In this document: piece after piece, positions 10,500 to 41,065 of the stretch
Layout of the letters: every line of letters starts with the position of its first letter
Position numbering within the stretch: position 1 is the stretch's first letter
DNA from: Gemmatimonadota bacterium
GTDB taxonomy: Bacteria > JBHIER01 > G020348925
Assembly (NCBI GenBank): GCA_020348925.1
Contig: CP070758.1
Coordinates: 3,425,688 to 3,489,687, forward strand
DNA length: 64,000 nt
Reading direction: 5' to 3'
Position numbers and translations under genes: made by a program
The notes under the pieces: generated by a model
Databases searched by the model: none
Told to the model about the DNA's origin: nothing
Seen by the model: the letters and a program-made list of their open reading frames with translations, nothing else

Positions 10500-10515
10500 C
10501 GCAAAATACATGCCA
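10500..10515 (-). promoter_or_regulatory. Sigma54 (-24/-12) promoter
   Basis: TGGCAT-GTATT-TTGCG on the minus strand, about 120 bp upstream of the diguanylate cyclase start. Confidence 0.65.
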
Positions 10516-17162: not shown

Positions 17163-17508
17163 ATCTCTCGATTACATTAATATGGTTGTAAGATCTTTTG
17201 TCATAATCTTCTTGGTACCTGCAACAGAGAGTTCAACAAACACAAAGTACGACTAAATCTATGAAAAACTGAAGCTGTTTTCAAGTGAAATGAAGATTTT
17301 AAAATGTTTCAAGTTTCAGATTTTTAACTCATCTGAAAAAGAAAAATCTTCGTAAATATCTCTCAATTTCATGTTGCATTTATACTACTTTGTTACGCCT
17401 TCGACTGTCGCATATTATCCACAGTTAAAAAATTTTATAATTTTGCAAATTTTTTCATCCCCAAATAAAAAGTGAACTTAGGTATGCTACTATGGATTCC
17501 TTGAAAAA

Positions 17509-17524
17509 TGGTACACAGTTTGCA
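17509..17524 (+). promoter_or_regulatory. Sigma54 (-24/-12) promoter candidate
   Basis: TGGTAC-ACAGT-TTGCA, one mismatch to consensus, in an AT-rich intergenic region upstream of the 17743 ORF. Confidence 0.55.
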
Positions 17525-17742
17525 TAATTCAGAATTTGAATCGGTTAGTCTCTTCCTCATAACCGATCAAACTTGAAGAAAGGAGGTGATTGTGACCCAA
17601 GGCAATTTGTTAAGAACCATAAAATCTTTCAAGGAGGTGAACGATGCATAATCTATCGCAATTGTAGATAAGGATTACAGTTTTTTTGAAATAGCACCTT
17701 GAAAATGAAGTCAAAATCCTTTTTAAAAGCGGAGGAATTACA

Positions 17743-18092
17743 ATGAAGTGGAAAAAAATGGGTTCTCATTTGGATTTCATATTGACAGTTTCTGTTGTAT
17801 TGTTTAGTTTCACAATCTTCACACAAAACATCGAGGTTTTCTCACAGTCCTTAGATTTAGAGGGAGCGGGTTATATTTCCTACCAAGCCGTGATGGTGGC
17901 TGATGTGGATAATGATGGGCAGGATGAGCTCCTTGTTGCGACATCGCAGGGATTTGAGGGATTGCCACCGCCGACCACAGGAGGTGGTGTGATCATCTAC
18001 GAATATACGACTTCTCCACGGGGGATCACGTATATGCCTGTCTGGTCAACCACGTTTCCTGGCGAAGCATATGAAGTTGCTTTCGATGTTGG
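17743..18092 (+). CDS. Secreted FG-GAP/VCBS-like repeat protein (3' end lost in gap)
   Basis: GGAGGA RBS, signal-like hydrophobic stretch, VADVDNDGQDELLVA repeat; runs into the Ns. Confidence 0.65.
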
Positions 18093-18192
18093 NNNNNNNN
18101 NNNNNNNNNNNNNNNNNNNNNNNNNNNNNNNNNNNNNNNNNNNNNNNNNNNNNNNNNNNNNNNNNNNNNNNNNNNNNNNNNNNNNNNNNNNN
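18093..18192. other. Scaffold gap (100 N)
   Basis: Run of exactly 100 Ns; true gap size unknown. Confidence 1.
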
Positions 18193-18319
18193 ATCGTATT
18201 ATAGCTGCTGCGGACGATTGATCCCCCTCTTTCATCGTGTCATCCGATACTACAAAACCACCTGTAAACCAACGACATATCGATGACATCCACATCTGAA
18301 CTCTCTCCTCTCCTTTCAT
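18193..18319 (-). CDS. 5' fragment of an unknown gene running into the gap
   Basis: AAAGGAG RBS then ATG (MKGEERVQMW...), about 50 bp downstream of a consensus sigma54 promoter; open until the Ns. Confidence 0.45.
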
Positions 18320-18368
18320 GGTCCATCTCCTTTCTTCAGCAAACATTGTCCATTTTTTCCAAATAAAT

Positions 18369-18384
18369 TGCAAACCCCGTGCCA
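18369..18384 (-). promoter_or_regulatory. Consensus sigma54 (-24/-12) promoter
   Basis: TGGCAC-GGGGT-TTGCA on the minus strand, a perfect match to TGGCAC-N5-TTGCW. Confidence 0.75.
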
Positions 18385-18503
18385 GTTCATTTTTCAAAAG
18401 GACAATATTTAACAGGAATAACTGAATTCTCTGTATTTCAATGGATTAAGGGAGATGTGCCTCTATGGATTGAAATGATGTGCACTGTCTGGGTGATGAA
18501 AGG

Positions 18504-18554
18504 GGTGCCCTTTCGGACCCATAAACACAAAAAGTGAGTCGATTCGGACTCACT
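18504..18554. promoter_or_regulatory. Tandem candidate enhancer (UAS) sites
   Basis: Palindrome AGTGAGTC-GATTCG-GACTCACT (18533-18554) and the related GGTGCCCTTTCGGACCCA 31 bp away. Confidence 0.4.
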
Positions 18555-18726
18555 ATCAGGCTGAGATTATGGAAATTCTGCGAACTGGTTCACACAAGCA
18601 AAATATCCTGACCGCACAGGCTTTGAATCTCAAAATTGACCGCAGGCGATCATGTCAATTTCCAGACTTCCAGATGGCCAGATTTACAGATGACCAGAGG
18701 GGACGCACACAACACGGAAGCCGAGG

Positions 18727-18783
18727 TCGATCGCTCAGGATATGTATCCCCCCATCGATCGCACAGGATATGTATCCTGTGCG
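18727..18783. repeat. Short tandem/palindromic repeat
   Basis: TCGATCGC(T/A)CAGGATATGTATCC twice (18727, 18755). The second copy forms the perfect hairpin CGCACAGGATA-TG-TATCCTGTGCG. Confidence 0.7.
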
Positions 18784-18947
18784 GAAGACCTGTAGGGACA
18801 TTCATAGCGATCAAACTGTCAAAGCGTCCTATTCTCATACTGTATGGTTTGTAAAGTTATTGAACGATTTACGGGGATATACATCCCGATGAAACTTCTT
18901 CGCCCAGCATACAAATACTGGGCGATCATGAAAGCGCACCTGGTGAT

Positions 18948-19640
18948 CTAAAGTTTATACCGCCTGGCAATCTTTTTTGCCAGTTCATATTTTTCCTTTT
19001 GCACGGCTATGTCACAGTATCTGCTTATCAATTCCATAAATTTCTCATGAGGGATTTTGTTCTTTTTCTTGATCTTGTCGATCTGTTTGAACAGTTCGTT
19101 CGACTGGAGACGTCCCAGAGCAATACGCCGTAAAAGCAATTCAATCTCACCCATCGAAACTACAATCAATCTGTCCGAGCCAAGATTATAGTTTTCAATC
19201 AATTTCCTCGCTATAGCAAAATTCTTCTGGTCCATGGCATTATTATAATATCTTTCCACCAATCCCATAAAGTGTTCATCAGGAACTTTGTCTTTTTTTC
19301 TTATCTTTTTAATGAGGATGAATGGCTCGTCGATTTGAGGATTAAAGGCAATTTGCTTGAGAAGCACCTCAATTTCACTGAGCGAAACCATAATCAATTT
19401 GTCCGAGCCAAGATTATAGCTCTTGATCAATTTTCTTGCTACTCTGTATTTCCTCCGTTTTACGGCAATATCATGATATCGGTTCACCAATTCCATAAAT
19501 TGTTCATCAGGAATTTTGTCTTTTTTCCGCATTCTATCTATTTTCGATACTATTTTATCCCTTTTCTTCTCATGAAGAATCAAATCATCGAAGAGTTTTT
19601 TTATCTCTATAAGCAATATTTCAATGAGCTTCGTACTCAT
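18948..19640 (-). CDS. Hypothetical basic helical protein made of three ~76-aa repeats
   Basis: KK(D/N)K(I/V)P(D/H)E.FM.L..RY...A......A.K....Y.L occurs three times (Pro at 44, 120, 197); GGGG RBS; AT-rich. Confidence 0.8.
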   Translation of the reverse strand: MSTKLIEILLIEIKKLFDDLILHEKKRDKIVSKIDRMRKKDKIPDEQFMELVNRYHDIAVKRRKYRVARKLIKSYNLGSDKLIMVSLSEIEVLLKQIAFNPQIDEPFILIKKIRKKDKVPDEHFMGLVERYYNNAMDQKNFAIARKLIENYNLGSDRLIVVSMGEIELLLRRIALGRLQSNELFKQIDKIKKKNKIPHEKFMELISRYCDIAVQKEKYELAKKIARRYKL

Positions 19641-19794
19641 GTTCCCCCTGTTCGAATGAAACCCGATTGATCATGAATCTTCTCCCTCAACCATTTACAA
19701 TGTCCATGCTATTCCGCACCTCTTTGGGGTGTTCTCCTGCGATGCCGCGCTCAGAGTCGAATTTAATACCTTTTTCCAGTACACTTCACACATA

Positions 19795-19999
19795 CTGAGG
19801 AATACTTTCGTCGCATCCGTCAGGGGCACATCCGCCGGTGCCAATTACAAATCTTTTAATACTTCTCCCGGATGAGCAGGTTTATGCCTTTCCTTGATTG
19901 ACCTTTCACCTCGTGACAATCAAAGGAATCCAGGGCACACACATCTTCATACTTTAAAGTGAAAAGAACCCGCTTGTTCCCACTTCGTTTGATTGAGAT
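19795..19999 (-). pseudogene. Decayed HigB/HigA toxin-antitoxin remnant
   Basis: Manual translation gives [29 protein letters not shown] (HigB C-terminus-like), then HKPAHPGEVLKDL*LAPADVPLTDATKVF (HigA N-terminus, TAA at 19845-19847). Confidence 0.7.
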
Positions 20000-22545
20000 T
20001 ACAGTCGCTCCGATTCATTAATGCCATACTTCTTTATCTTTTTATGAAGATTGCGGCGGCCGAGCTGGAGGGCTTCAGCCGTTTTTGACTTATTCCAATT
20101 GTGTCTCTTCAGTGCTTCAATAATGAATTCTCTCTCAAACCGCTCCATTGCTCCGGTTAATGTGATTTCTTCAGAGACCTTCTCAGAGACTGAGACGGTC
20201 TCCTTAATATTCGGCGGCAAATCCTCGGCCTGAATCATTAAACTTTCCCGCAGCAGAAGAGCTCTCTCAATACACTGCTCCAGCTCCCTCACATTTCCCG
20301 GCCACGTGTAGCTCATGAGAAGCCCCATAGCTTCGTCACTGATACGAAGGGGCTCCTCACCCGCCCTCCGATGGAGAGCATGTTTCACCAGAACAGGAAT
20401 ATCCTCTTTTCGCTCCCTGAGTGGTGGCATGTGAATCGGGATGAGATTGAGCCGGTGGAAAAGATCCTCCCGAAACCGGCCGGCCTCCATTTCGGCCTGA
20501 AGATCCTTGTTCGTGGCGGTAACGATCCTGACGTCGACGCGAATGGTCTCGGCCCCCCCCACCCGCATGAACTCCTTGCTCTCGATGACGCGCAGGAGCT
20601 TGGCCTGAGTCCCCGGAGGCATGTCGCCGATCTCGTCCAAAAATATCGTCCCGCCATTGGCCAGCTCAAACTTGCCGACCTTCTTCGCCGTTGCCCCGGT
20701 GAAGGCCCCCCTTTCATGGCCGAACAGCTCGCTCTCGACCAGTTCCCTGGGAATGGCTGCGGCATTAATAATGACTAGCGGCCCGTCCTTCCTGCGGCTG
20801 TTATAATGAATGGCCCGGGCAACGAGCTCCTTGCCGGTGCCGCTTTCACCAGTGATGAGGACGCTGGCATCCGACTCGGCCACGCGATCCACAACTTTGA
20901 GAATCTCTAGGACCTTCGACGAATCCCCCACAATGTGGGAATACTCGCCCCGAAGCTCTTCTCGCTGCGGACCTGTCCCCGCCTTCGCGAATTGATACGC
21001 CTCGGCCCGCTTCAAGCGCCCGGTGACGTGCGACAATTTTCCCTTCAGGTCTCTCGTCTGCTCTTCAAGCTTCTCCCGTTCCTTCACCAGAAGTTCCCGT
21101 TCTTCCATGATTATTGCCACCCGGTCCGATATCTCCTCATCACCCATGGCCTCAAGATCCTTCTGCCGATTCTCGATCTCCCCCCTGATTTTATTGAGAT
21201 GCCGTTCTCGCGTCAGCAGGTCTTCACTCAACTCAAGAGCCCTTCGTTCAGCAGCGAGCCTCTCCTTCTCCTGACGCCGGAAGAGATAGATATGAATGAA
21301 GAGGGTCGAAAACACGACGCCCCCCCACGTCTGGTTGACACGCATCCAGACATTCCCCATGGCAAGGGACAGGTACGCGTACACACCTGTGGCGATCAAG
21401 AGCAGGATTGAGATGATCGTTCCCCGAACCGTTCCCACGTTCGGAAAGAGAAAACCGATGACGAGCGCACACAGAAGAATACTGAACAGGACAGATCCCA
21501 CTCCTGCCTTTGTAACGAAATTCCCCTGCAGGATATTATCAAGAATGTTCGCTTGAATTTCAAGAAGCGGTTGATGATCGGCACAGGGCGTCGGCCGCAC
21601 GTTGGCTGCCCCTGTAGCCGTCATCCCCACGAAAACGATCTTGTCTCTCAGTTTCTCGAGGGAAAGAAGCGGTTCCTCGCCTTCAAGTATTTGTCTGTAG
21701 CTCTGGAGGATCTGGATGAAGGAGTAGTTTGTGTAGCGACCCGGACCGCCGGCATAGTTGACGAACATCTCACCTTTCGACGTCACAGGGATTCGGACAA
21801 AAATCCCATCGGAGCCCGTCATCATCATCCATTTTCCTTGAATGCGAACGTCACTTTTTTCAACGCCCAGAAGATCACCGGCCATGGACAGGGCCAGGGA
21901 CGGGTAAAGTTCACCATTATATTCGATGACAAGGGGACTCTTCCTCACGACGCCGTCCTCATCGGCTAGGATATTTCCGTGGCCGGTTCCGGAAGCCGCA
22001 AGGATAAGGTCCTGAAAGGGGAAAATCCCGCCGAGCGCACGGTTGTATTTCGTCTCTTTCTCCGGAACCGGTTCACCGATTCTGGCCACATCCGAGGAGA
22101 CCCAAAACTCCTCAGGGATAAATTGCTCCTCTTCGAGATAAAAGAAATAGGGGTACGAAACATTGCCGGAGGAACGGGTCAGGTTTACCAACTGCTCATC
22201 GTACTCGGGATGCTCGGTGCTCCGCTCCGAAAAGAGGAGGTCGAACCCGACAGCCCGGACATCGTATTCGGACAAAATGTGCAGGAAAGTGGCGTAGAAA
22301 TCCCGGCTGATGGGCCAGGCTCCGATCTTCTCGATAGTGTCGTCCCCGATGAAGACGAGGATTATGTCCGGATGGGGGTCGTACCCCCCACGAAGCCTCA
22401 GGAAGATATCGTAAGTCCTTTTCTCGAAACCGATAAAGAACGAAGTGTAGGACAGCCCGAAGAACAGGAGAAAGACGACGACGGCAAGAGTCGCACATAT
22501 TATGCTTCCCCGCAGATCGATTCTATTGTGCCAACTCATATTCAT
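19999..22545 (-). CDS. Membrane-anchored CHASE2-domain sigma54-dependent transcriptional activator (CHASE2-TM-coiled coil-AAA+-Fis HTH)
   Basis: N-terminal TM; CHASE2 ([48 protein letters not shown]); three TMs; coiled coil; [39 protein letters not shown]-terminal HTH. The ORF track extends to 22650 but the ATG at 22545 is more plausible. Confidence 0.9.
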
Positions 22546-22735
22546 AATAGTTCTAAAAGTATAATAAAACTCATCGGGTCCCCGTTCTTCTTCTTCAAAT
22601 ATAGGGCTGGAAGACCGCGTTCCGCAAACAATTTCTGGTTCGAATTTCAAATTTTGAGTATCGGATTTCGGATTTACGATTCCAGAGGGCGAGGGTCCTC
22701 ACGAACTGATACGAAGAGAACGTGTTCCTCAACAA

Positions 22736-22840
22736 TTCCGTCATTCTGAGCACGGCGAAGAACCTCCATATTTGGTGAAAGAGATCCTTCGTCACGGAGT
22801 CTATCCCGTGCAACGACACGGGATTCCTCAGGATGACAGA
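22736..22840. repeat. Palindromic interspersed element, copy 1
   Basis: GTCATTCTGAG...CGAAGAACCT...AGATCCTTCG...CTCAGGATGAC nested inverted repeats; 59 bp (22782-22840) identical to 26210-26268. Confidence 0.9.
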
Positions 22841-22913
22841 CACGCGGGAAAAAGAGTGCCCTCACGAATCGGTGCGACTTCAGTTTGGATACCAGGAACC
22901 ATTTTCCCACTCA

Positions 22914-25796
22914 CTAAGGTGTCAAGCAGGTCCCGAGGCCCAGGGTGACATTGACGATCCCCAGCACATCGACGATATCCACCAGGTCATCGTCATTGCA
23001 GTCAGCAGCCCAGTATTCGAGATCACTCGGTTCCTCAGTGCCCAACACAATGTTCACCCCAAGCAGGGCATCGATAATATCGATCATCCCGTCATCATTC
23101 ACATCGCCCTTCAATCCCTCGTGGATAGTGATGGAGAGATCCTGAATATGGCTGAGCATCTCCGAATCCCTCACCTCAACGCTGACGGCCATTATGCCCG
23201 CGGTTGAGGGCGTCCCTGAAATCACACCCTCAGTGGGCTCAAGGGTCAGCCCCTCCGGCAGTGAACCGGCCACGATACTCCAACTGAACGGCGGGGTTCC
23301 TCCCACGACGAAGAGAGTCTCGTTGTATGCGAAACCGACATATCCATCCTGCATTGCGTTCGTTACAATAGTCAGGGAGGGGTCATAGAAAATGTCGTCC
23401 TGAAAAGGCTCGGACCAGTTCCCGGCCACATCTCGAAATTGAACGGAGACGGTTTTTACGCCATCGAAAAGGTCGCCGCCAAACTCTGCGGCCGTCAGGT
23501 CCCACCCGCTCTTGACACCGGCGTAAGCTTCAGGCTCGGACCACAAGGTCCCGTCGTTGCTGAACCGCATGCGGGCCCCAGCGCCCATGCCGCTCAGGGC
23601 ATCCGCAGCCCTGAGATCATCCAGACCAACGATGGCCACGGTGGTTGTGTCATCACCACCATGCACCGAGATTGTGCCGTCCGTCGGTGCCGAAAGATCA
23701 ATCCAGAACGGCCCCACATGGAAAGTATTTCCCCAGTTGCCGGCGACATCCCCACACCGGATGTGGAAGTAATGGTCGTCACCACCACTTAGGGGCGGAG
23801 AGGTGGCTCGCTCCTCACCCTTTCCAACATCCACCGTTTGATCGGGCACAACACTTGGAAATCTGTTCCACACAACCGAATATCCGTCGAGGCCGCTTCC
23901 AGGGGCAGGATCAGCGGCATCGGTCCAGATGATCTCCAGGGTGGGGTTGTCGGACCAGAGGCTCACATCATGGCTCGGACTGGCGACATCGGTCGGCCCC
24001 TCCGGCGGGACAGTATCCTTGGAGAACCACCAGCTCCAGCTGCACCCACCCCCGACGTTGTCGGCGCTGTCATCGACCTTGAAGTATATGGTGTGACTGC
24101 CTTGAGACAGATCGTCGAAGCCGGGGACGGACCAGCCATCGTCGTCCCAGGAGACACCGCCCCAGTTAGTAAAGAGCTCCAGCCAAGCGCCGGAGCAGGA
24201 GTTGAGTTGATACCAGCCGTCATCCAACCCGAACCCGTCGTCAAACCCGAAGTTGGAAAAAGCGGGCGAGGTGCTGTACCATGCACCCTGTGGCTCGGCG
24301 ATGGGCTCCATGGTCGGCGGTGTCGCGTCGGCACCCTGCTGTGCGGTATAGGTGTAAGCGAGACGAGTCCCCCACGAGGACAGGACCACCGGGATGAGGA
24401 TGATCCGGCTCGAGCTTCCCCAGTCCGCGGACATGGAACCGGCGTCACCTCCACCGAGATTCATCTCCTCGAAGCCCACCCCGGGATAGTAGGCCACCAT
24501 GGCCGCCCAGTCGCGTCCGTCCTGCCCGTCAAAGGTGATATGCAACCCTTCCTCCACCCCCAGTGCCGGTCTATTCAGCTGTATAAAGTTCGTGCCGTAG
24601 TAGTCGGGCGGCTTGTTATCCTGATTCCCCTCCGCCGGATAGCTGGTGTGGATGTGGGAAGATCCCACGTAGGAATCAATCCAGCTGCCTCCCTCCGAGA
24701 AATGCTGCCCGTCATCCCTCGACCCGGTAAAGTACCGCCACACCGAGTACTCCTTGAGAGCCTCCTCGAAACTGCTGCCGTAATGCGTGGAGAGGACATG
24801 GTCAATATCATCGAGCGTATGGTTTCCCTGATTCGCGCCGTTGCGGTCCCAAACTCTTCTCGGCATGTCGTTGTCGGTGTGCCTTTCGGTCAAATAAAAG
24901 ACCCACACACTGGCCCCGTATTCGTACTCGCCGTTGGCCCTGGTGATGGGCAGCTCCGGCCAGTAGAGGGGGTTCTCCCACCCGCTGGAGATATAGTTGG
25001 AGTAATCGTTCACCCGGTCGTAGACCATATCCTCCATCCACGTGGCGCAGTTCTCGTACCAGAAATCCGACTCCCGGTCGCTGTAGCTGAACTGGCAGGC
25101 GTGATTGAACTCATGGGCGACCGTTACCTGGGCCAGGTCCAGCCCAAGGCCGGCCGCAATCACAATATAACTCGTCACGTCCTCCTGGTTGGGATCAGGC
25201 CCGTCCTGTTCCGGCTGGCAGTAACCGACCCAACCCCCCATGCCACTATCCACGATGTAGAAATCGTATTCATCCCCATCGATTCCGTCCGGCGGCGGAG
25301 CGTCCCAGCCCATCTCCTCAACCTCTTTGCTCCAGCTCTCCTCCGCATAATCCGAAACATTTTCGGCATATCCCTGAGACACCGCATCCACACCCGAGGT
25401 GGTGTAGTGAATCCTGAAATGGGCGGTCGTGATCACGGTTTCAGGTCCACTGAGTGTGGGGCGCTGCATGGAACTTGCGAGGATGTTTCGAGTGGTTTCG
25501 CTCACTCTGTGCACATCCCGCCAGGCATGCAACAGGGGCAACATCCCGCACCGCGTTTTTTTCTCCCCCCGGAATTTTTCGGGCAGCTTCCCGTAGTCCT
25601 TGACAGCGTAAACATTATAGGTACGCGCGGTCTCGTAGTCGATTTCGTTCGATTGATAAGCCTTCACTATTTTTCCGAAAGCGGTCGCATTCAATTTTTG
25701 AGGCCTCTTCTCCTCCGTTGCGTGGACTACAACTTTTCCGAAGAAAAGCGGACACAACACCAACAACAGCCCCAGTGTCAAACGGATATGTCTCAT
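22914..25796 (-). CDS. Secreted zinc metalloprotease (MXAN_6640-like) with Ig-like modules and C-terminal dockerin-like domain
   Basis: Signal peptide, HFRIHYTTSG, AHEFNHACQ (HExxH) plus WYENCATWMED, putative Ig (GGTPPFSWSI..GSLPEGLTL), dockerin GDVNDDGMIDIID...ADCNDDDLVDIVD. Confidence 0.85.
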   Translation of the reverse strand: MRHIRLTLGLLLVLCPLFFGKVVVHATEEKRPQKLNATAFGKIVKAYQSNEIDYETARTYNVYAVKDYGKLPEKFRGEKKTRCGMLPLLHAWRDVHRVSETTRNILASSMQRPTLSGPETVITTAHFRIHYTTSGVDAVSQGYAENVSDYAEESWSKEVEEMGWDAPPPDGIDGDEYDFYIVDSGMGGWVGYCQPEQDGPDPNQEDVTSYIVIAAGLGLDLAQVTVAHEFNHACQFSYSDRESDFWYENCATWMEDMVYDRVNDYSNYISSGWENPLYWPELPITRANGEYEYGASVWVFYLTERHTDNDMPRRVWDRNGANQGNHTLDDIDHVLSTHYGSSFEEALKEYSVWRYFTGSRDDGQHFSEGGSWIDSYVGSSHIHTSYPAEGNQDNKPPDYYGTNFIQLNRPALGVEEGLHITFDGQDGRDWAAMVAYYPGVGFEEMNLGGGDAGSMSADWGSSSRIILIPVVLSSWGTRLAYTYTAQQGADATPPTMEPIAEPQGAWYSTSPAFSNFGFDDGFGLDDGWYQLNSCSGAWLELFTNWGGVSWDDDGWSVPGFDDLSQGSHTIYFKVDDSADNVGGGCSWSWWFSKDTVPPEGPTDVASPSHDVSLWSDNPTLEIIWTDAADPAPGSGLDGYSVVWNRFPSVVPDQTVDVGKGEERATSPPLSGGDDHYFHIRCGDVAGNWGNTFHVGPFWIDLSAPTDGTISVHGGDDTTTVAIVGLDDLRAADALSGMGAGARMRFSNDGTLWSEPEAYAGVKSGWDLTAAEFGGDLFDGVKTVSVQFRDVAGNWSEPFQDDIFYDPSLTIVTNAMQDGYVGFAYNETLFVVGGTPPFSWSIVAGSLPEGLTLEPTEGVISGTPSTAGIMAVSVEVRDSEMLSHIQDLSITIHEGLKGDVNDDGMIDIIDALLGVNIVLGTEEPSDLEYWAADCNDDDLVDIVDVLGIVNVTLGLGTCLTP

Positions 25797-25919
25797 ACGA
25801 AAACTACCCTTTCTTGGAAAGAACACACAGCGAGATACGTTTCTTACTGATACGAAAAACACGTACATTGAACAGCAACCCGACCGAAATTCATTCCTCC
25901 ACATTCGACCTGAGGGGTG

Positions 25920-25948
25920 AATATAATGGAAAAAGGGAAAATCGACAA
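25920..25948 (-). promoter_or_regulatory. Sigma70-type promoter candidate for the metalloprotease
   Basis: TTGTCG-17 bp-TATATT on the minus strand. Confidence 0.35.
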
Positions 25949-26035
25949 GGGTATCTTAGGGATCCTGAAGGTCCAGGTCTCTCTCGGTCTCCTCGTGCCC
26001 AAACAGAGTTTTGAATCATGGAGTGCTCATCCGCA

Positions 26036-26112
26036 ACAAATCCGAAAATCAAATGACCACATACCCTTTTTTCCGATCAAATTTTTGATTTTGATTTTTG
26101 GATTTTGGATTT
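26036..26112. repeat. Short-unit inverted repeat element (AAATCCGAAAATCAAAT...TTTGATTTTGATTTTTGGATTTTGGATTT)
   Basis: Tandem 6-8 nt GATTT(T/C)G units in inverted arrangement; related GGATTTC units at about 22650-22680. Confidence 0.55.
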
Positions 26113-26173
26113 ATAAATCCTGGTAGGGATAGTGTCCTCGCGAGCCACTACGAATAGATTATGTTTCGAACAC

Positions 26174-26268
26174 TTCCGTCATTCTGAGCAAAGCGAAGAA
26201 TCTCGACACAGATCCTTCGTCACGGAGTCTATCCCGTGCAACGACACGGGATTCCTCAGGATGACAGA
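26174..26268. repeat. Palindromic interspersed element, copy 2
   Basis: Same arms as copy 1, same orientation, 59-bp identical core. Confidence 0.9.
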
Positions 26269-26310
26269 AGCACGGGAGAGCGTGTATCTGCTCTGCCGTC
26301 CTACTCAATT

Positions 26311-26464
26311 CATCATCCTGCCTTTCGACAGGCTCAGGACAGGCCTGACCGGACTTGATCCGGGTTTCGGGACAGGCTCCGTGAGAAATCTGTACTCTTC
26401 GTACCCAAATTCCTATTGAGAACCTGAGTCTCCTGGATTGCCCGATCAAGTCGGGCAATGACAC
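26311..26464. repeat. Additional palindromic elements (TTCGACAGGCTCAGG; CCGGACTTGATCCGG; ATTGCCCGA-TCAAG-TCGGGCAAT)
   Basis: Perfect hairpin at 26437-26459 and a related GACTTGATC core at about 26352. Confidence 0.6.
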
Positions 26465-26482
26465 CGGAGAGGGCTCGTAACC

Positions 26483-28864
26483 TCAACGCCAGATGAAATT
26501 CCCTCTTGTGGGTTTTCCCTGTCTCTCTTTTTTCTGATTGTCCGGTTTTGTTTCCAAAAATTCGAATCGCCCTTCATAGTCGGGATTGATTTTAACGGCC
26601 TCCTCATACTCACGCTGCGCCTGTTCCAGATCGCCCAACTCAAAATAGAGAAAGGCCAGATTCAAGTGGACATCGGCATCGTCCGGATTGAGGCTGAGAG
26701 CCCTTGTGAAAGCCTCCAAAGCCTCCTGAGAAAGACCTCTCTTGGAATACGCCACGCCCAGATTGTTGAAGACCTGTGACGAGCTGCCGTCAATCCGGCA
26801 CGCCTTCTGAAGCATATCGATGGCCTCGTCCAGCAACCCCGCCCGACCCAAGTGGACTCCAATCTCATTGTACGTCGAACATGCTGGCGCATCAGCCTCA
26901 AGAAACGTCTCGTACCCTGTCAGAATGTTTTGGTACTTTCTGCTTCTGATCTCGTCAAGATCTCTTGAGAAAAGATGTGTCCCCGCAGCTTCGATTGAGA
27001 CCGGCGGGGCTTCGACATCAATTTCATTAGAAGGATACGATTGCCAGGCCTCATCCACTTCAACCACCTGAAGCTCCTCGCGCCGTTGCTCGACTGCACT
27101 CACTCCTTCCTGCCAGGCCTGGTGAAAGGGACTCCCAACCAGTGTCGCCTCAACCGGCATCCACATTTTACCATTGTGACTCAGGAAAGCGTTCTCCTCA
27201 AATCCCAAAGGAGCCCCATCGCCTTCACCAGATCCGACGTCCACGGCTAAAAGCAGATGGCCCGGGACGTCAAGTATGGCCGTCGGGATGCCGATGTTTT
27301 CCAGACAGGAGGCGTACAGAACGACGAAGTCATCGCAGTCGCCGCGCTTCTCGATCAGGGTTTCGAGGGGATACTGGACATGATCGATGATCTCATGCTG
27401 ACGGCTCGCCGACGAATACGGCGTCTGCGGGTCCGGGGTATAGACCAAGCCGTACTCCCCCAAAAGATCGAAAAGAGCGATGGCGTGCAGAAGATTCAGC
27501 GGGAGAAAGGAGACATCCTCATCGAGGATATTCAGGGCACGGCTCGTCACAGTCCGCACGCTCTCGTCCTTGGGCTCGATAAAAGCGGCCACCTTCCGAA
27601 CATCGTCCCACCGTATGGCGTTCCGTCCGTAGACGTTCGCTTTCTGGGACGTCTCCATGTCCCGTTCACGGCTCTCCTCTTCAGAAAAAGAGAGAAGGGA
27701 GACACGACCCTGAACCGTACAATCGACCCTCACGCTTGAAACATTCCGGTTGAATATGACGAACAGGGGAATCTCTTTCGACTCCTCCGGCCCGAGAATG
27801 ACCGCCTCGTCACTGTAAAACGGCCCGTCCGTGAGCGTGTTGAACTCGATGCCGGCCCTGACCGAAATGGTTTTGTCGCTGACATTGACAACGCTGATCG
27901 ATCCGATAGGATGCTCGACATACCTTTTATATTGCGCGGCGAAAAGATCGTTCAGGCGGACCCATTCGATCCGCACCCACGGTTCCTCCTGCTCGAACCG
28001 CAGGGCGAAGGAGACGCGGTGGGTGCTGGGCAGGGTCGGCACATCCACATAGGCGTAGTCGAGTTGAAATATTTTGAACCGGAACCCGGCCCCACAGGAC
28101 CAGCTGAGGGGTTCGTTCGATTCGAGATCGTCCTGAAGACCGGCCCTCAGAGCAAAAGCATCGGAGAGCCAGTATTCACCGCCGTAATGAAGCCGATCGT
28201 CCAATCCGCCCGCTAAGAGCAGTCGGTCCGTCAACCGATATGCGATGCCAAAAGAGATCGATTGTTGCAGGACAGGCGCCGAGTTTCCCGTATCGTATTC
28301 GACCTGTGTATCCCCCATATCCTTGAGCGTGAGCCCCACATTGAATCCCTCGAAATATCGAAATAATAATCCCACATCAAAACCCCACCCGTAAGCATCG
28401 CCGAAGCTTCGGTTTTCATATTCGGCATCGGTCCGCAGGAGTTTTGTATTGACGCCGAAGGAGACCTTATATGGCAACTGCAAAGCATAGGAGAACAGAA
28501 ATTGGTTCTCCCCATAGGTGAGCTCGAAGTCATCAAACCCAATTCTGGACCAGGCCAATCCGAAACTGCCCCAGTTTCTGAAGGGAAAGGCCAGGCCGAG
28601 GAGGCTGTGTTGGATACCGGTAGCATAGAGGTTGGCATACATACTGTGTATTTCAATATTTTGGAGCAGACTCAAACCGGCAGGATTCCAAAAGGCAGCG
28701 TTCCCATCGTCTCCGATAGCCACAAAGGCCTCCCCCATGGCCGCGGGCCGGGCTCCCAGGGGCACATCCTGGGCGTCACTGATGGAAACACTCACAATCA
28801 CCCACAACGGTATCACGAAGGCGATGAGAGCTACTCGATCTTTAAGGCTAATAACGTTGCACAT
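26483..28864 (-). CDS. PorV-like barrel + Ig-like + transglutaminase-like + TPR fusion protein
   Basis: Signal peptide; GARPAAMGEAF, FWNPAGL, LDYAY...THRVSF; then RGDCDDFVVLYASCLE, PGHLLLAV, WMPVEAT; three C-terminal TPRs (VFNNLGVAY, VHLNLAFLY). Confidence 0.8.
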   Translation of the reverse strand: MCNVISLKDRVALIAFVIPLWVIVSVSISDAQDVPLGARPAAMGEAFVAIGDDGNAAFWNPAGLSLLQNIEIHSMYANLYATGIQHSLLGLAFPFRNWGSFGLAWSRIGFDDFELTYGENQFLFSYALQLPYKVSFGVNTKLLRTDAEYENRSFGDAYGWGFDVGLLFRYFEGFNVGLTLKDMGDTQVEYDTGNSAPVLQQSISFGIAYRLTDRLLLAGGLDDRLHYGGEYWLSDAFALRAGLQDDLESNEPLSWSCGAGFRFKIFQLDYAYVDVPTLPSTHRVSFALRFEQEEPWVRIEWVRLNDLFAAQYKRYVEHPIGSISVVNVSDKTISVRAGIEFNTLTDGPFYSDEAVILGPEESKEIPLFVIFNRNVSSVRVDCTVQGRVSLLSFSEEESRERDMETSQKANVYGRNAIRWDDVRKVAAFIEPKDESVRTVTSRALNILDEDVSFLPLNLLHAIALFDLLGEYGLVYTPDPQTPYSSASRQHEIIDHVQYPLETLIEKRGDCDDFVVLYASCLENIGIPTAILDVPGHLLLAVDVGSGEGDGAPLGFEENAFLSHNGKMWMPVEATLVGSPFHQAWQEGVSAVEQRREELQVVEVDEAWQSYPSNEIDVEAPPVSIEAAGTHLFSRDLDEIRSRKYQNILTGYETFLEADAPACSTYNEIGVHLGRAGLLDEAIDMLQKACRIDGSSSQVFNNLGVAYSKRGLSQEALEAFTRALSLNPDDADVHLNLAFLYFELGDLEQAQREYEEAVKINPDYEGRFEFLETKPDNQKKERQGKPTRGNFIWR

Positions 28865-28877
28865 TTTACGAGCGATT

Positions 28878-31274
28878 CTACTGGTTGAGCACCACCACAG
28901 TCTTGGTCCTCGTCTCGGTGCCGCTGCCGTTCGTTATGGTTACCGCGATGATGTACAGACGGTTCGGGACGAGGCGGCCCTCGTCGTCCCGACCGTCCCA
29001 CGTAATGAAGCGCTGATTATCATAGAGAGCAATGCGGACATTCTGGTTCAAAAGCCGAACAAGACGGCCTGCAAGATCGTACACCTTTACTGCGACATCC
29101 GATTCTTCAATGAAATCAAAGGTAATGATCACCTCATCATCGTAGCCATCCCCATTCGGAGAAAAAAGACGAGGCTGACAGTCCAATTCCAGCGAAGAGA
29201 TGACGAAGGGGGCATCCGAATCATCGCTCCCCCATGCATTGTTCGTGTCCGTAGCGACGACCCGCATTCGAAATGCTCTGCCTCGAAGGTCGGAGGGAAT
29301 ATCCCAGAGATAGAGACCGTCGTTTTTCGACATCGACTCTCCAGACGCATCCGTCTCAGGCAGATCCTCCCAACTGCTCCCATTGTCGCGGCTGAGCTTG
29401 ATGGCGATTGCCAGAGATAAAGAGTCATCGTCAAGGTCGGTCGCTGACCATCTGACGGTTTGCTGGCCCGACCAAACCTCTCCGCCATTTGGATTGAGGA
29501 CTGCGACCTGAGGAGCACTATTATAGGTATTGATCCAGAAGAAGAGGGTGTCGGACCACTCGGACGGGAGAGCTTCTGTTTTGATAATGGCCTGCACTCT
29601 GGCGAAATAGCTCTTGTCCTCTTCCAGAGGATCACATGTCTTCGTCGTGTCTCCCTCCTGAGTTTCAAGCACCTGGATCGGGTCGGTCCAGTTGAGATTA
29701 TCATCAACCTGAATTCGATACAATGCCGCCTCGGCTGTATCGAGAGGATCGTTATCACCACCGAAACTCCAAACAAAGGTGGGCGCGATCGTTCTGACTT
29801 CACTACCAATCATCCCGATGATTGAAAAATTTATGGGTGGCTGTGGAGGCTCATCGTACACATCAACGTAAAAATCCTGGACCTCCGACCACGGCGAGCC
29901 CAATTCGGTCGGATCCACGGTCTGAATTCGGTAGAACCAATGGGTGTTATCCGTCAGGGAATCCTGAACCCAGAGTGAGGTCACCCCGTCCTGTGTGCTG
30001 TACAGGAAATCCTCACCATTGGCAAATAATTCATCGTCAATCTGGACCACATAGTGCATGAGCTCATACGGTTCGTCGGCCCCATCCCACTGGACGCTGG
30101 GCTGCTGCTGGCGAATTTCGACGCCTGCCGCGGGTTCGAAACCGCTCCTCGGAGGCTCGGGAGGGACATTGGCATGTCTCAGGAAAATATCCCCTTAGTG
30201 TTCCCAGACCTGCCACAGATTGTCCATCCAGTCCGTGGCAAGAGCAGGAGCCCGATCATCCCCCACATACGCTGCGGTGGTATCCAAGGTGGACCAGGAA
30301 GAACCATCGTAATATCTGCCTTGAATATTCTCATCGTCCTCCTCCTTTGTCCAGACCACCCAGAGATTTGACGAGGCGTCGCCGAAGATGCACGGATTCT
30401 GATGCACGTAATATCCGACCGTCACCTGAAAGACGGCACTCAGTGCGACATCGTAGAACCGAGTGAAAATGTTAAAATTGGACATCCAGGCGAACCACAC
30501 ACGCCCTCTGCTGTCAACCGAAATCCGCGGTGAAAAATCACCGCTCGGCCCCGAGGCAATGTGAAGAGGTGTATCCAGCCAGGCCTCACCATCGTAATAC
30601 GTGGCATAGATGTCCTCATTCCCCGCACGATCGCTCTGCCACACGACCCAGACATGACCGGAGGAGTCCACCGCGACCTTCGGGAACCCGTCATTGGCAG
30701 GATGCTGGGTGATGTTCAAGGGATCGGTCCACTCCACACCATCGTAATACTTAGCGTAAACATCGGCGCTGTCCAGGGCCATACTTCCCGGTGACTGCCA
30801 CACCACCCACAATCTGTTGGACCGATCGACAGCGGCATCGGGGGAGAGAGAGCCGACCGTGTTCAGCGGCGATGCTTGGGGCTCGGTCATGGTCTCGCCG
30901 CCGAAGGCCCGCGTGTAAATCTTCCACAGCCCGCTGTGCTTGGACTCCCAGACAAACCAGATGAGGCCGGTACGGTCCCTGACCAATACCGGTGTCAGAT
31001 CGCTGCTGTCCGATTCGGTCATTTGAATGGGAGCGGACCCCACCCCCTGTGTAAAAGAGCGGGCGTAAATGTCCCAGTTCCGGTTCCTGTCCGTCTCCCA
31101 GGCCACCCACGTCGTATCACCCGTCGTGGCGAGAACGGGATCTCGGCACAGATCGGACCCGACGGTCACCGACAGGGTATCGGACCAACGAGCATTGCTG
31201 GCATCCGATGGGAAGGGAAAGAGGACAAGAAGACTTGTAATTGCGATGAAAGTGAAGAATCTCACACTCGGCAA
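28878..31274 (-). pseudogene. Secreted beta-propeller / FN3-like / FlgD-Ig CTD protein interrupted by a single in-frame TAA (30195-30197)
   Basis: ORFs 30195-31274 and 28878-30059 share a frame, and the 45 codons between them are open (WEH*GDIFLRHANVPPEPP...ELMHY). Signal peptide; repeats P.(L/V)AVD..G.VWVVW; C-terminal FSPNGDG, VKVYDLAGRLVRLL, WDGRDDEGRLV. Confidence 0.8.
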
Positions 31275-31353: not shown

Positions 31354-31407
31354 CTTCTTTTTCATTGTCCACAGATTTGAGGTCCTGAGCTTTATGTGAA
31401 AAAACGC

Positions 31408-31436
31408 TTGACAAGGCGGACACTTTTTGCTAATAT
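31408..31436 (+). promoter_or_regulatory. Sigma70-type promoter for the M1 peptidase
   Basis: TTGACA-17 bp-TAATAT with extended TG. Confidence 0.6.
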
Positions 31437-31515
31437 GATGCACGTGGTACTGGGAACGCTTCTTTGGGCATCTATCGGAAAAGGATTCATTCATCATACA
31501 CAAAGGAGGTCTGCC

Positions 31516-34398
31516 ATGAAAAGGCTGTGGATCTTCCTCTCTTTTCTGTCGCTGCTCCTTATCCCCCTCTCCGCAGAGAGCGAGCGGGGCAGAGAGCACC
31601 TCGTGCGGATCAGAGAAGAGCGGAGAAGGATGCAGGAGGCCGTTCAAGAGGCCATTCGGTCGGCCAAACAGCCGATTCTCTTGCAGGTTGAAGGCCAGGA
31701 GGATTTTGATGTCACGTATTACCGGCTCGATCTCGATGTCGATGTGGACAATGAAACTCTGGACGGGAGCGTGACCCTCAGGGCGACGAGTCTCATTTCG
31801 GATTTAACCGAGATTGTCCTGAACTTCTACGATGATATGCCAGTAACCTCAGTAACCGGGGATGCCTCGGGATTCACCCATACTGATAATTTAGTGACCG
31901 TCTCGCTTCAGACCTCTTACAGCGCGGGTCAAAGCTTCGAAGTGGTGCTCAACTATAACGGGCATCCCTGGGAGGGAAATTTGGGCCTGAGTTTTGTGAC
32001 CGTTTCCAATAATCCCCTTGTCTATACCGAATGTTCGCCCTTCTTCGCCCGGGCGTGGTGGCCCTGCAAGGACACACCGGTGGACAAAGCGAATTCCATG
32101 GATCTCCATATAACGCTCCCGGACAACCTCGTCTTAGCCTCAATCGGCGCGCTGCAAAGTGTCGTCGACAACGGTGACGGCACCCAGACCTGGCACTGGC
32201 ATGAAGGTCATCCCATCGCCACCTATCTCGTCTCCATTACGGCCTATCCCTACCGAACATTCTCGGACATCTATGAAGGCGCTGGCGGGCAGGCGATGGA
32301 TGTGGACTATTACGTCTATCCTGAGGACTACGCCCTCGCTTTGGAGGACTTTAACGAAATCGTGGACATGATCGAGTTTTTCGCCTCCAAATACACCGAG
32401 TACCCTTTCATCGATGAAAAATACGGTATGGCCGAATACACCGGCTACTATGCGGCCATGGAGCACCAGACATGCACCAGCTACGGTTCCAGTTACATCA
32501 CCGGTGATCACTCTTGGGATTCCATTATTGCCCATGAACTGTCCCACCACTGGTGGGGGAATTCCGTCTCCGTCGGAAGCTGGCACGACGTCTGGCTCAA
32601 GGAAGGTTTTGCCTCCTATTCCGAAGCCCTGTGGATGGAAAACATCGACGGATCGTACGGTTTACAGGATTATATGGTCACGACCCAGCTCGCAGTGGAT
32701 CTGCAAGAATCGGTCTACCGATATGACATCACCGACGCCGGGAACATTTTCGTCTCGGAAGTATACGACAAGGGAGCCTGGGTGTTGCACATGCTGCGCC
32801 ACGTGGTGGGTGATGAAAACTTTTTCCAGATCCTCCAAAGCGTCTATGAGACGTACGCCTTCGGCAACTTCGTGACCGAGGAGTTGAAGGATGCCTGCGA
32901 GCAGATTTCCGGCCAGGATCTGGACTGGTTCTTTGAGGAATGGGTCTACGATGTGTGGCATCCGGAATACTACTGGGGCTGGAACAGCAACGATCTCGGA
33001 GACAGCTTCGAGATCACGGGCTTCATCGATCAGATCCAGTCCAGAGGTCCGGTCTTCACCATGCCCGTCGAAATGGCCATTGCCACAGCCGCGGGTGACA
33101 CCATCATCGTGGAAACCCTCTGGGTCGACGAAGGGTCCGAACGCTTTCAACTCGTGGTGAACGATGAGCCCACGGACGTCCTCCTCGATCCCTACAACTG
33201 GATTTTAAAGGAACAGAGCATCATCACCGACCCCCTCGTCTCGTACGTCATCAATCGGGTCGACGACGGAAATGGGAATGGAGACGGGCGGCCCGATCCC
33301 GGTGAAACGGTCGCTGTGATTGTTACCCTGGAGAACATCGGCACAGACGTCTTCGGGCTGGAAGCAAGTCTGGGTACAACGGACCCGGATATTGAAATAA
33401 CGTCAGCGGTCTCGTCGTACGGCGATGTCTCACACGGGACCATGGTGGGGAACGAGGACACACCTTTCACCATCGAGGTGCATCCCGCGGCAGAGACCCA
33501 CGTCGTCATGTTCAAGCTCAATTTCACAGGACAGAACGGGTACACAGGCCTCGACAGCTTCTACCTGACCATCGGGACGCCGAGGGTCCTGCTGGTGGAC
33601 GACGACGGCGGTGATGAAAACGAGAGACCCTATCTCAATCCGTTATCGATCAAAGCTATTCCCTTCCAGATGTGGGATGTCGCCGCCGAGGGTCCTCCGG
33701 GGGACACCTTAATGTTCTTTGACGTCATCGTCTGGCTGACCGGTGCCGAACGGGACAATACCCTTCGTGCCGCTGATCAGGCGAGTCTTGCCGCATACCT
33801 TGACGCGGGCGGAAGTCTCTTCCTCAGCGGACAGGACATCGGCCATGATCTCTTCGAGAGGGGCAATGGGATCGATTTCTTCAGCAATTATCTCCACGCC
33901 ACCTTTGAGGCCGATGAAACGAGCGAGTATTTCCTGCAGGGGATAACCGGTGATCCCATTTCGGGTCAATTTGGGCTGCTGCAGCTCGATGCTGCCCAAG
34001 AGAGCCCCGACGTCATAGCCCCTGGGGAGGGGGCAAACAACACGCTCAACTACAGCCCCTCGGGAAATGCCGCCGGGATAAAATACGGGGGGGATTACAG
34101 AGTCGTTTACTTTTCCATCGGATTCGAGGGAATACGAACCTTGACCGGTGCCAGCGAACCGATGAGGGCGGATATGTTGGACAATATCATATCGTGGCTG
34201 CAGATTGTGCCGGAAAAGGGAGATGTGAACGAAGACGGATCCATCAATATCCTCGATGTTCTGGCCACGGTCAACATCGTATTGGGCTTGCTCTCCCCCA
34301 CACCGACCCAGCAATGGGCGGCCGACTTCAACGAAGACGGTGCCGTCGATATCATCGATGCCATTACGATCGTTAATTACATCCTGGGTCTCAGGTAG
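31516..34398 (+). CDS. Secreted M1-family aminopeptidase with C-terminal dockerin-like domain
   Basis: AAGGAGG RBS, signal peptide, ARAWWPCKD, AAMEH, HELSHHWWG...WLKEGFA, YDKGAWVLHMLR; dockerin at 34216-34395. Confidence 0.92.
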   Translation: MKRLWIFLSFLSLLLIPLSAESERGREHLVRIREERRRMQEAVQEAIRSAKQPILLQVEGQEDFDVTYYRLDLDVDVDNETLDGSVTLRATSLISDLTEIVLNFYDDMPVTSVTGDASGFTHTDNLVTVSLQTSYSAGQSFEVVLNYNGHPWEGNLGLSFVTVSNNPLVYTECSPFFARAWWPCKDTPVDKANSMDLHITLPDNLVLASIGALQSVVDNGDGTQTWHWHEGHPIATYLVSITAYPYRTFSDIYEGAGGQAMDVDYYVYPEDYALALEDFNEIVDMIEFFASKYTEYPFIDEKYGMAEYTGYYAAMEHQTCTSYGSSYITGDHSWDSIIAHELSHHWWGNSVSVGSWHDVWLKEGFASYSEALWMENIDGSYGLQDYMVTTQLAVDLQESVYRYDITDAGNIFVSEVYDKGAWVLHMLRHVVGDENFFQILQSVYETYAFGNFVTEELKDACEQISGQDLDWFFEEWVYDVWHPEYYWGWNSNDLGDSFEITGFIDQIQSRGPVFTMPVEMAIATAAGDTIIVETLWVDEGSERFQLVVNDEPTDVLLDPYNWILKEQSIITDPLVSYVINRVDDGNGNGDGRPDPGETVAVIVTLENIGTDVFGLEASLGTTDPDIEITSAVSSYGDVSHGTMVGNEDTPFTIEVHPAAETHVVMFKLNFTGQNGYTGLDSFYLTIGTPRVLLVDDDGGDENERPYLNPLSIKAIPFQMWDVAAEGPPGDTLMFFDVIVWLTGAERDNTLRAADQASLAAYLDAGGSLFLSGQDIGHDLFERGNGIDFFSNYLHATFEADETSEYFLQGITGDPISGQFGLLQLDAAQESPDVIAPGEGANNTLNYSPSGNAAGIKYGGDYRVVYFSIGFEGIRTLTGASEPMRADMLDNIISWLQIVPEKGDVNEDGSINILDVLATVNIVLGLLSPTPTQQWAADFNEDGAVDIIDAITIVNYILGLR

Positions 34399-41036: not shown

Positions 41037-41065
41037 TTGACAGCGAATCCTGATAGTACTATTCT
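41037..41065 (+). promoter_or_regulatory. Sigma70-type promoter
   Basis: TTGACA-17 bp-TATTCT. Confidence 0.5.

Follow-up and report, generated by a model that had tools for sequence, protein, structure and literature searches.

Two neighbouring units on one strand of a Gemmatimonadota genome: a cargo-barrel cassette and a CHASE2-sigma54 activator

Do genes that face the periplasm and follow one another in the same orientation over 13 kb necessarily make up one pathway? The question is raised by the minus strand of positions 18193–31274 in a 64,000-nucleotide stretch of a Gemmatimonadota genome (contig CP070758.1, forward-strand positions 3,425,688 to 3,489,687; hereafter the window). This strand encodes, in order, a secreted propeller protein with a T9SS-type C-terminal domain (CTD; T9SS, type IX secretion system), a PorV-like outer-membrane barrel with a transglutaminase-like and TPR tail, and a CHASE2 protein fused to a sigma54 activator, i.e., a bacterial enhancer-binding protein (bEBP). 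A preliminary description had joined these parts into a single signalling route, in which the docked surface protein acts through the barrel's tail on CHASE2 and so on a sigma54 promoter. Our analysis favours, with moderate confidence, another reading: a cargo-anchor cassette (unit A) and a CHASE2-bEBP (unit B) are two independent units, neighbours in this lineage, with no step leading from A to B. The features on which the argument turns are as follows.

30195–31274, minus strand: 5' piece of the cargo gene, encoding a hydrophobic, signal-peptide-like N-terminus and beta-propeller repeats (weak matches to Reg_prop, 27.9 bits, TolB and beta_prop_Msarc)
28878–30194, stop to stop, minus strand: 3' piece of that gene, continuing the frame of the 5' piece and encoding Ig/FN3-like repeats and a T9SS-type CTD (about 28881–29210)
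27998–28765, minus strand: PorV/PorQ-family outer-membrane barrel, aa 34–289 of the barrel protein (NCBIfam NF033709, 112 bits against a cut-off of 90, model positions 9–325 of 326)
26945–27979, minus strand: Ig-like plus transglutaminase-like module, aa 296–640 (about 345 residues), with invariant Cys510, His536 and Glu572
26576–26932, minus strand: TPR repeats, aa 645–763, at the end of the barrel protein (Pfam TPR_1, TPR_2 and other TPR families)
19999–22650, minus strand: membrane-bound CHASE2/sigma54 activator (bEBP), an open reading frame (ORF) of 883 aa (CHASE2 180.5 bits, cut-off 26.3; Sigma54_activat 236.6 bits)
18369–18384, minus strand: exact sigma54 -24/-12 element TGGCACGGGGTTTGCA, the only exact TGGCAC-N5-TTGCW match in 64 kb
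18193–18319, minus strand: start of the target ORF, with ATG at 18319 after GGAG, cut by a gap of undetermined bases (N) after about 42 codons

The ORF reading bears out the co-oriented minus-strand series that had been described. In order of transcription it comprises 30195–31274, 28878–30194, 26483–28864, 22914–25904, 19999–22650 and 18948–19640, then a 550-bp spacer and a short ORF. Position 18193 marks only the edge of a run of 100 N (18093–18192), which identifies the window as a scaffold. Between units A and B there are two intergenic gaps, of 578 bp and about 370 bp, and an unrelated protease gene.

Conservation of the cassette and its linkage to the activator

We scanned one genome per species with an alignment of the barrel protein, which gave 261 relatives, kept the best 80 loci, called ORFs in all of them and searched these with the window proteins. 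The PorV barrel is fused to the tail module in 11 of the 80 loci. A co-oriented CTD gene lies upstream in 10 of these 11 and immediately upstream in nine, with a spacing that runs from an overlap of at most 17 bp to a gap of at most 88 bp. The tenth is L040, where the CTD gene stands two genes upstream of the barrel gene; L019 has none upstream and carries a CTD-bearing M14 peptidase gene 1.1 kb downstream. Every one of the 11 barrel-fused loci has a match to the CTD profile and the remaining 69 have none; in the window the profile matches only the Ig/CTD ORF. Since the profile was made from these same sequences, its informative part is the absence elsewhere together with the extra matches. 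The proposed pairing of a CTD surface protein with a dedicated barrel is thus supported, and has precedents in PorQ-PorZ, PorV-PorU and SprF-SprB.

The bodies of the cargo proteins vary (Reg_prop propellers; FG-GAP with Big_5 in a 3125-aa protein of L014; TolB-like in the window), whereas the CTD persists, and so does the adjacency of the genes. Both L013 and L014 have FG-GAP proteins as cargo, and two CTD genes stand in tandem in L025 and in L030. On the 3' side of the barrel gene the neighbours differ from locus to locus, encoding RsgA, a GFO/IDH oxidoreductase, a caspase-domain protein, a Metallophos protein or, on the opposite strand, aldo-keto reductases. The cassette was seen in metagenome-assembled genomes (MAGs) of Latescibacterota, Gemmatimonadota, KSB1, Cloacimonadota and Spirochaetota. 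As an observation on the labels themselves, the module sequences at 10892–11911 of L009 and 2703–3722 of L012 have branch lengths of 0 and 0.03, yet they are labelled Gemmatimonadaceae and Latescibacterota, respectively; one MAG label or bin is therefore probably wrong.

The expected co-localisation of barrel, CTD and CHASE2-activator homologues in other genomes was not found, only the barrel-CTD pair being kept: the CHASE2 region has a counterpart in 0 of the 80 loci and the sigma54 AAA+ region in one. This single case is a receiver-type activator of L010 (13640–15046), 2.1 kb downstream of a module gene without a barrel; a sigma54-like site, TGGCATTGTTTTTGCT, follows that activator at 15263. 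Eight of the 11 barrel-fused loci have a downstream flank of at least 4 kb (upstream, up to 10 kb), the flanks of L001, L012 and L014 being short, and none of these eight holds a bEBP. Nor does any of 12 cargo genes, from nine loci, have a sigma54-like site in its upstream 500 bp, and in the window the cargo, protease and activator genes are not preceded by any site that differs from the consensus at two positions or fewer. In the MAG "Cloacimonetes bacterium 4572_55" a CHASE2-bEBP is encoded on a 146,217-bp contig and the barrel-fused L019 on a 24,590-bp contig; this MAG thus has the two families, but not as neighbours. Taken as a claim about signalling, the contact of the barrel tail with CHASE2 and sigma54 finds no support in these counts.

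The cargo protein and its barrel

The cargo protein is exported by Sec and carries a CTD at its C-terminus; a signal peptide is present in the cargo of L001 and in the window's first piece. L001 is the closest genome relative, with approximately 70% identity over the barrel protein, and its cargo is one uninterrupted ORF of 832 aa spanning both pieces of the window gene. In the window an in-frame TAA (30195–30197) splits the gene into a propeller piece and an Ig/CTD piece, the latter starting with 45 codons that include no start codon (the first is at 30059). The 5' piece aligns to residues 39–393 of the L001 protein, the TAA aligns to GAT (Asp), and the global alignment has 543 identities in 834 columns, with similarity continuing on both sides of the stop. 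We ruled out a reassignment of the stop codon, because TAA is the terminator of 9 of 41 long ORFs and translation table 11 leaves the other genes open. The interruption of the cargo gene is either a recent break or an assembly error at the TAA codon. It follows that the cassette in this genome may be crippled, or that a base was miscalled, and that the CTD-bearing piece, as written, is without a signal peptide. C-terminal CTD and N-terminal signal peptide stand in one protein in L001; in the window the TAA separates them. The secreted propeller/CTD gene of the preliminary description was therefore right as to its domains (propeller, Ig and, below the cut-offs, CTD) and wrong as to a single open gene.

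The 793-aa barrel protein (26483–28864, minus strand) begins 13 bp downstream of the cargo gene (28864 to 28878), and the description of a PorV-like barrel with TPR repeats at that distance holds good, as the NF033709 match and the repeats at aa 645–763 indicate. Barrels of the PorV/PorQ type are FadL-like, with 14 strands and with both termini on the periplasmic side. Over the barrel the best solved relative is PorV (6h3i_F, E 0.0018), and the equivalog models for PorV and PorQ are missed by far (NF033710, 48 bits against 250; NF033711, 41.7 bits against 220). At E ≤ 0.01 the 12 CTDs all match the type A model TIGR04183, 11 match the C-terminus of PorU, nine that of PorZ and five the type B model. 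The window CTD has an SPNGDG motif, resembles the PorU C-terminus at E 2.5e-7 and gets its best sorting-domain score, 23.8 bits, from the type B model; relatives pass FlgD_ig, e.g., L001 with 37.8 bits.

In this setting the cargo is first exported by Sec, after which its CTD would be taken up by a T9SS. The CTD would then be recognised by the barrel encoded 13 bp downstream and the cargo held on the cell surface, by analogy with PorQ-PorZ, PorV-PorU and SprF-SprB. The extracellular loops of PorV are reported to bind CTDs (PMC10994853), and PorZ, described as a double beta-propeller with an uncleaved CTD (PMC5121618), is anchored by PorQ as PorU is by PorV (PMC5562754, PMC10947112). As in these Porphyromonas gingivalis pairs, a CTD propeller would here be held on the surface by a PorV/PorQ-family barrel, and there is a likeness between the CTDs of the partners and the ones in PorU and PorZ. 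Unlike in them, the genes are adjacent, the barrel bears an Ig/transglutaminase-like/TPR tail of about 500 residues, the equivalog scores are missed, the partner domains vary and the hosts lie outside Bacteroidota. The SprB-SprF and PG1035-PorP pairs offer a second comparison, as type B cargo genes are reported to adjoin the genes of their PorP/SprF anchors (PMC9143113). Adjacency of cargo and anchoring barrel is shared with them, and so are the SPNGDG motif and the best score to type B; by contrast, the barrel here is PorV/PorQ, the 35-bit cut-off of the type B model is missed and all 12 CTDs also match type A. In the literature that we searched, no paper was found on a PorV barrel with a transglutaminase-like tail, and a search for T9SS in candidate phyla gave no useful result.

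Such likeness invites the idea that unit A is simply the core PorZ-PorQ pair of this bacterial group, a component of the secretion system and not a cargo with a private anchor. PorZ as described is indeed a double propeller with an uncleaved CTD held by PorQ (PMC5121618, PMC5562754, PMC10947112), most partner genes encode Reg_prop propellers, which brings to mind that the nearest homologue of PorZ is reported to be the Reg_prop-type sensor BT4663 (PMC5562754), and the PorZ model has matches, at its C-terminal end, to nine of the 12 CTDs. We nevertheless consider this idea unlikely. The PorZ match is confined to the CTD and the PorQ and PorV equivalogs are far out of reach; the partners differ greatly, from the FG-GAP/Big_5 giant of L014 to the tandem CTD genes of L025 and L030; and the partner is broken in this genome, which would be surprising for an essential part of secretion. 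The window, moreover, holds a second, plain PorV/PorQ-family gene, and the module occurs in Elusimicrobiota and Spirochaetota loci, the CTD being found in 0 of the 69 loci without the barrel.

Several points weigh against our reading of a cargo-anchor cassette independent of the activator. The window CTD stays under every curated cut-off: CHU_C gives 26.8 bits against 27, FlgD_ig 25.4 against 27, TIGR04183 19.5 against 23 and TIGR04131 23.8 against 35. Transglut_core in the window (17–18 bits) is also under its Pfam cut-off of 23, and the tail's periplasmic site, the binding of CTD by barrel and a catalytic activity are things that we infer. In the module tree L009 and L012 are nearly identical, L025, L030 and L040 are close, and the barrel-fused sequences can form one side of a weakly supported branch. 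The 11 barrel-fused loci thus amount to some seven lineages rather than 11 independent samples, and since a single origin of the fusion is possible, the cargo-barrel pairing may be partly inherited. As for independence, L001 ends 0.7 kb past the barrel gene and is uninformative on what follows (the 0.7 kb has no similarity to the window in blastn or tblastx). A barrel homologue, P0005 (65–67% identity), and an activator homologue, P0044 (61%), are each on one 25,792-bp contig from JGI; probably they share this contig, in which case the neighbourhood is kept at least within this lineage. Neither T9SS core genes nor rpoN were seen among the long ORFs of the window, nearly all of which were scanned; SprA/Sov and PorK/L/M/N were looked for within these 64 kb only. 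Finally, the promoter at 18369, 1.6 kb downstream of the activator gene, is the activator's likeliest target by its proximity alone.

The transglutaminase-like tail module

The transglutaminase-like domain was recognised correctly as far as its residues go: Cys510 (in a GDCDD motif), His536 (PGH) and Glu572 (PVE) are invariant throughout alignments A2 (18 full-length sequences) and A3 (49 sequences of the module). What falls short is the Pfam score of the window protein. At E ≤ 0.1, DUF553 is found in 42 and Transglut_core in 35 of the 49 module sequences. Structural neighbours of the module in the Atlas are named transglutaminase-like (TM 0.91–0.93 by query), and the fold also turns up there in Spirochaetota and Fidelibacterota clusters. 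A profile search of the PDB returned TPR proteins only with the full alignment and 0 matches with the module profile. The Ig domain that follows the barrel was considered as a homologue of the CTD and rejected (hhalign probability 0.1).

PorV-like barrels related to this one carry C-terminal OmpA domains. OmpA_C domains bind peptidoglycan. These OmpA_C tails are therefore placed in the periplasm and, by analogy, the Ig/transglutaminase-like/TPR tail as well. It would most likely be a papain-like Cys-His-acid enzyme (a cysteine protease or transamidase) or a docking arm, accompanied by the TPR arm, and its target may be the partner propeller protein or periplasmic components of secretion.

The module is not confined to the barrel; in several other phyla it is joined to beta-propeller proteins or has their genes next to its own. 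Sorted by their N-termini, 81 module proteins comprise a cluster of 42 long forms, 17 short ones (217–265 aa), the 11 with a PorV barrel and a few small groups; forms without the barrel begin with Sec-type signal peptides. Propellers (NHL, Reg_prop with Y_Y_Y, or DUF5128) precede the module in 8 of 14 scanned module proteins, and a word-based search also found NHL-fn3-module fusions. The 17 short forms are from spirochaetes, and 13 of them adjoin a gene of one cluster, of which the scanned member has an LVIVD propeller, Big_13, a PorZ_N-like propeller match and a lipoprotein-like N-terminus. The short N-termini look like small outer-membrane barrels, with OMP_b-brl in 8 of 19 at E ≤ 0.05, above its cut-off only in L069. 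A word search with aa 30–640 gave 83 matches, 23 of which span 93% or more of barrel and module together. Many PorV/PorQ-like barrels that end in a different C-terminal tail were met as well (P0133–P0184), the tails being OmpA, FlgD_ig plus OmpA, fn3, CsgG/LpoB-like, SH3 or TPR; the theme of a barrel with a periplasmic tail is common in candidate phyla and wider than this cassette.

What the tail does admits two more specific proposals, to neither of which we give more than a small chance. In the first, the barrel protein has in its tail a protease of its own, which acts as LapG does on LapA: it cuts a segment of the tethered cargo that extends into the periplasm, or processes the cargo in transit, with the TPR repeats as a regulatory or substrate-binding arm. 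A surface adhesin is reported to be freed by LapG, a transglutaminase-like protease of the periplasm (PMC3032545). The invariant Cys, His and Glu, the expected periplasmic site and the pairing of the module with propellers under two barrel types (PorV/PorQ and OMP_b-brl) all suit such an enzyme. The best PDB matches, 4fgo (E 0.4) and 4u65_E (E 1.3), are insignificant and align around GDCDDF. We take both to belong to the LapG family; in the PDB they are named "Periplasmic protein" and "Putative cystine protease". On the other hand, there is no significant similarity to LapG, the PDB search with the module profile being empty, and no known cleavage motif or substrate; in many relatives module and propeller are fused in one Sec-exported chain, which fits self-processing or docking equally well. 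A comparison with LapG and the BTLCP family comes out likewise. A periplasmic Cys-His-acid enzyme that is genetically tied to a large surface protein is common to both (for LapG, PMC3032545; here a putative one), as is local similarity around the catalytic Cys; here, unlike there, no sequence match is significant, the domain is fused to barrels or propellers and not free, and a LapD-like partner is absent. As one version of the tail's role, a LapG-like release switch would be attractive.

The second and broader proposal, again improbable in its entirety, is that the module does the periplasmic work of a larger device, one that extends across the outer membrane. Joined to PorV/PorQ barrels, to OmpA-like small barrels or to propellers, and always with an exported propeller partner (in the barrel-fused forms, probably displayed on the surface), it would couple events at this partner on the outside to cysteine-protease or transamidase chemistry, such as release, maturation or cross-linking. 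In the lineage of the window the output might then be read by the CHASE2 activator.

The activator, its surroundings and their meaning

The fusion of CHASE2 to a sigma54 activator was described accurately, as the two Pfam scores listed above, the GAFTGA motif and HTH_8 (52 bits) attest. The protein also has an AAA lid, a Walker A motif (GESGTGKE) and a coiled coil, and CHASE2 is flanked by hydrophobic helices (aa 48–66 and several within aa 384–430). Met36 (22545) is the likely start, giving 848 aa, because the database copy has this length. With NtrC/NifA-class bEBPs it shares the AAA+ sigma54-interaction domain, GAFTGA, the lid and a Fis-type HTH, and with CHASE2 cyclases, kinases and GGDEF proteins the position of CHASE2 between transmembrane helices. 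It departs from ordinary bEBPs and CHASE2 receptors in that both are fused in one membrane-bound activator without receiver, GAF or PAS domains. CHASE2 would sense a periplasmic cue and transmit it, by way of the membrane helices and the coiled coil, so as to control how the AAA+ ring assembles; this ring would, to judge by position, open the sigma54 promoter 1.6 kb downstream.

In a word search with the CHASE2 half, 7 of 75 matches were fused to Sigma54_activat, all of them 56–100% identical. When 1.84 billion representatives were searched exhaustively, 11,492 relatives of CHASE2 were obtained at E ≤ 0.001. Of the best 150, 33 have at least 760 aa (the other 117 are shorter), and 32 of the 33 were scanned; CHASE2 with Sigma54_activat was found in 16 of the 32, which with P0041 makes at least 17 clusters at 50% identity. 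Source records of these CHASE2-bEBPs name Cloacimonetes, Gemmatimonadota, KSB1, Nitrospirota and Ignavibacteriales. No paper that joins CHASE2 with sigma54 or sigma-54 was found in the literature searched, nor, judged by title or the start of the abstract, one on a fusion of a CHASE2 domain to a transcriptional regulator. The terms sigma, CHASE and enhancer are absent from the main text of a census of transmembrane transcription regulators (PMC10269533). Anti-phage defence was also considered and rejected, PADLOC giving only a generic AAA+ match of the activator.

Around the activator gene and the promoter the following further features were found.

22914–25904, minus strand: MXAN_6640-family HExxH metalloprotease, 996 aa, with He_PIG and a C-terminal dockerin (NF045524, 163 bits against 140; He_PIG; Dockerin_1)
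18948–19640, minus strand: charged helical protein of 230 aa with three repeats of about 76 aa (G+C 0.40 against 0.54 in the adjoining genes)
18735–18889, no strand: palindromic motif GGATAYRTATCC in three copies (18738, 18766 and 18875); 0 of 100 shuffles reach this count, folding z = -4.3
18533–18554, minus strand: palindrome AGTGAGTC-N6-GACTCACT, with an 8-bp stem and after it, on the transcribed strand, the T run TTTTTGTGTTT; listed by the terminator scan
18504–18520, minus strand: palindrome GAAAGGG-CAC-CCCTTTC, some 128 bp upstream of -24, folding no better than shuffles (z = -0.75)

The claim of a perfect -24/-12 promoter is confirmed. An exact match has a chance expectation of 0.02, and 2 of 100 shuffles reach one. 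The target gene is lost, because the N gap at 18093–18192 cuts the ORF. The tandem palindromes reported at 18504–18554 do not survive as such: they are two different sequences, and one resembles a terminator. The latter (18533–18554) has a folding energy of -12.6 kcal/mol (z = -2.9) and stands some 160 bp upstream of -24, where it could terminate the transcript that arrives from upstream or, alternatively, be an activator site. The copies of GGATAYRTATCC, 350–500 bp upstream of the -24 element, are alternative and more repeat-like candidates for activator sites. Rfam has no match in the 550-bp promoter-proximal spacer, either by gathering scores or at E ≤ 0.1.

Two further sigma54-like sites were noted in the window. 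TGGTACACAGTTTGCA at 17509–17524 (plus strand), with one mismatch, lies about 220 bp upstream of an FG-GAP ORF and overlaps a sigma70-like match (17501–17528). This ORF (17743–18092, plus strand), which has a signal peptide, converges on the N gap from the left, as the promoter's target ORF does from the right. TGGCATGTATTTTGCG at 10500–10515 (minus strand) has two mismatches and keeps GG and GC; it stands about 120 bp upstream of a receiver-GGDEF gene (8913–10382).

The MXAN_6640 protease gene lies between the two units and is a member of neither. The preliminary description allowed for its being a later insert; its G+C (0.54–0.57) is the same as that of its neighbours. Relatives of the metalloprotease occur in 0 of the 80 tail-module loci. 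The 230-aa protein belongs to no Pfam, NCBIfam or PADLOC family, has relatives in 0 of the 80 loci and gets only weak leads from the Atlas (RecX-like or TPR-like). A secreted M1-family peptidase (31396–34398, plus strand) is, like the 22914–25904 protease on the minus strand, large and ends in a type I dockerin; an M1 peptidase gene is also divergent from the cargo gene in L001. The second, plain PorV/PorQ-family gene (2539–3567, minus strand) scores 189.5 bits, and 163.7 against 220 with the PorQ model; with the barrel in the 793-aa protein it shares 24% identity. Elsewhere in the window, 48801–50519 (plus strand) encodes a Porphyromonas-type peptidyl-arginine deiminase domain with an Ig-like domain after it, and some 2.3 kb at 40885–43189 have a G+C of 0.42–0.44, ORFs all of 92 aa or less, no tRNA and no Rfam match. 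The NCBIfam scan also gave a weak ProA match.

It may be asked whether the single signalling route, in which a docked surface protein makes the barrel tail contact CHASE2 and so switch on the sigma54 promoter, could hold as a specialty of this lineage. All its parts do lie on one strand within 13 kb, a periplasmic position is expected for the tail as well as for CHASE2, barrel and bEBP homologues are probably on the same 25.8-kb contig in one relative, and CHASE2-bEBPs share the phyla Cloacimonetes, Gemmatimonadota and KSB1 with the cassette; even so we hold the route to be very improbable, given the empty counts for CHASE2 (80 module loci) and bEBPs (the eight flanked loci), the separate contigs in Cloacimonetes bacterium 4572_55, a distribution of the cassette far wider than that of the neighbourhood, no sigma54-like site before the cassette in the window or in nine relatives, the protease gene and long gaps in between, and the interrupted cargo gene.

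Here, then, co-orientation of periplasm-facing genes over 13 kb is not evidence of a pathway. With two independent units as the probable reading, the T9SS, work on which has so far been mostly in Bacteroidota, gains a PorQ-PorZ-like pair in other phyla, and the conserved, enzyme-like tail of its barrel is one for which no function has been described. The 261 relatives of the module and its repeated ties to propellers mark it as a family of some size that is uncharacterised and whose genetic partner is clear. The CHASE2-sigma54 architecture, present in at least five phyla and not met in the literature searched, fixes a sigma54 activator in the membrane and raises the questions of how the AAA+ ring assembles and how promoter DNA reaches it. 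The tail module with its propeller partners and the membrane-bound sigma54 activator are each of separate interest.

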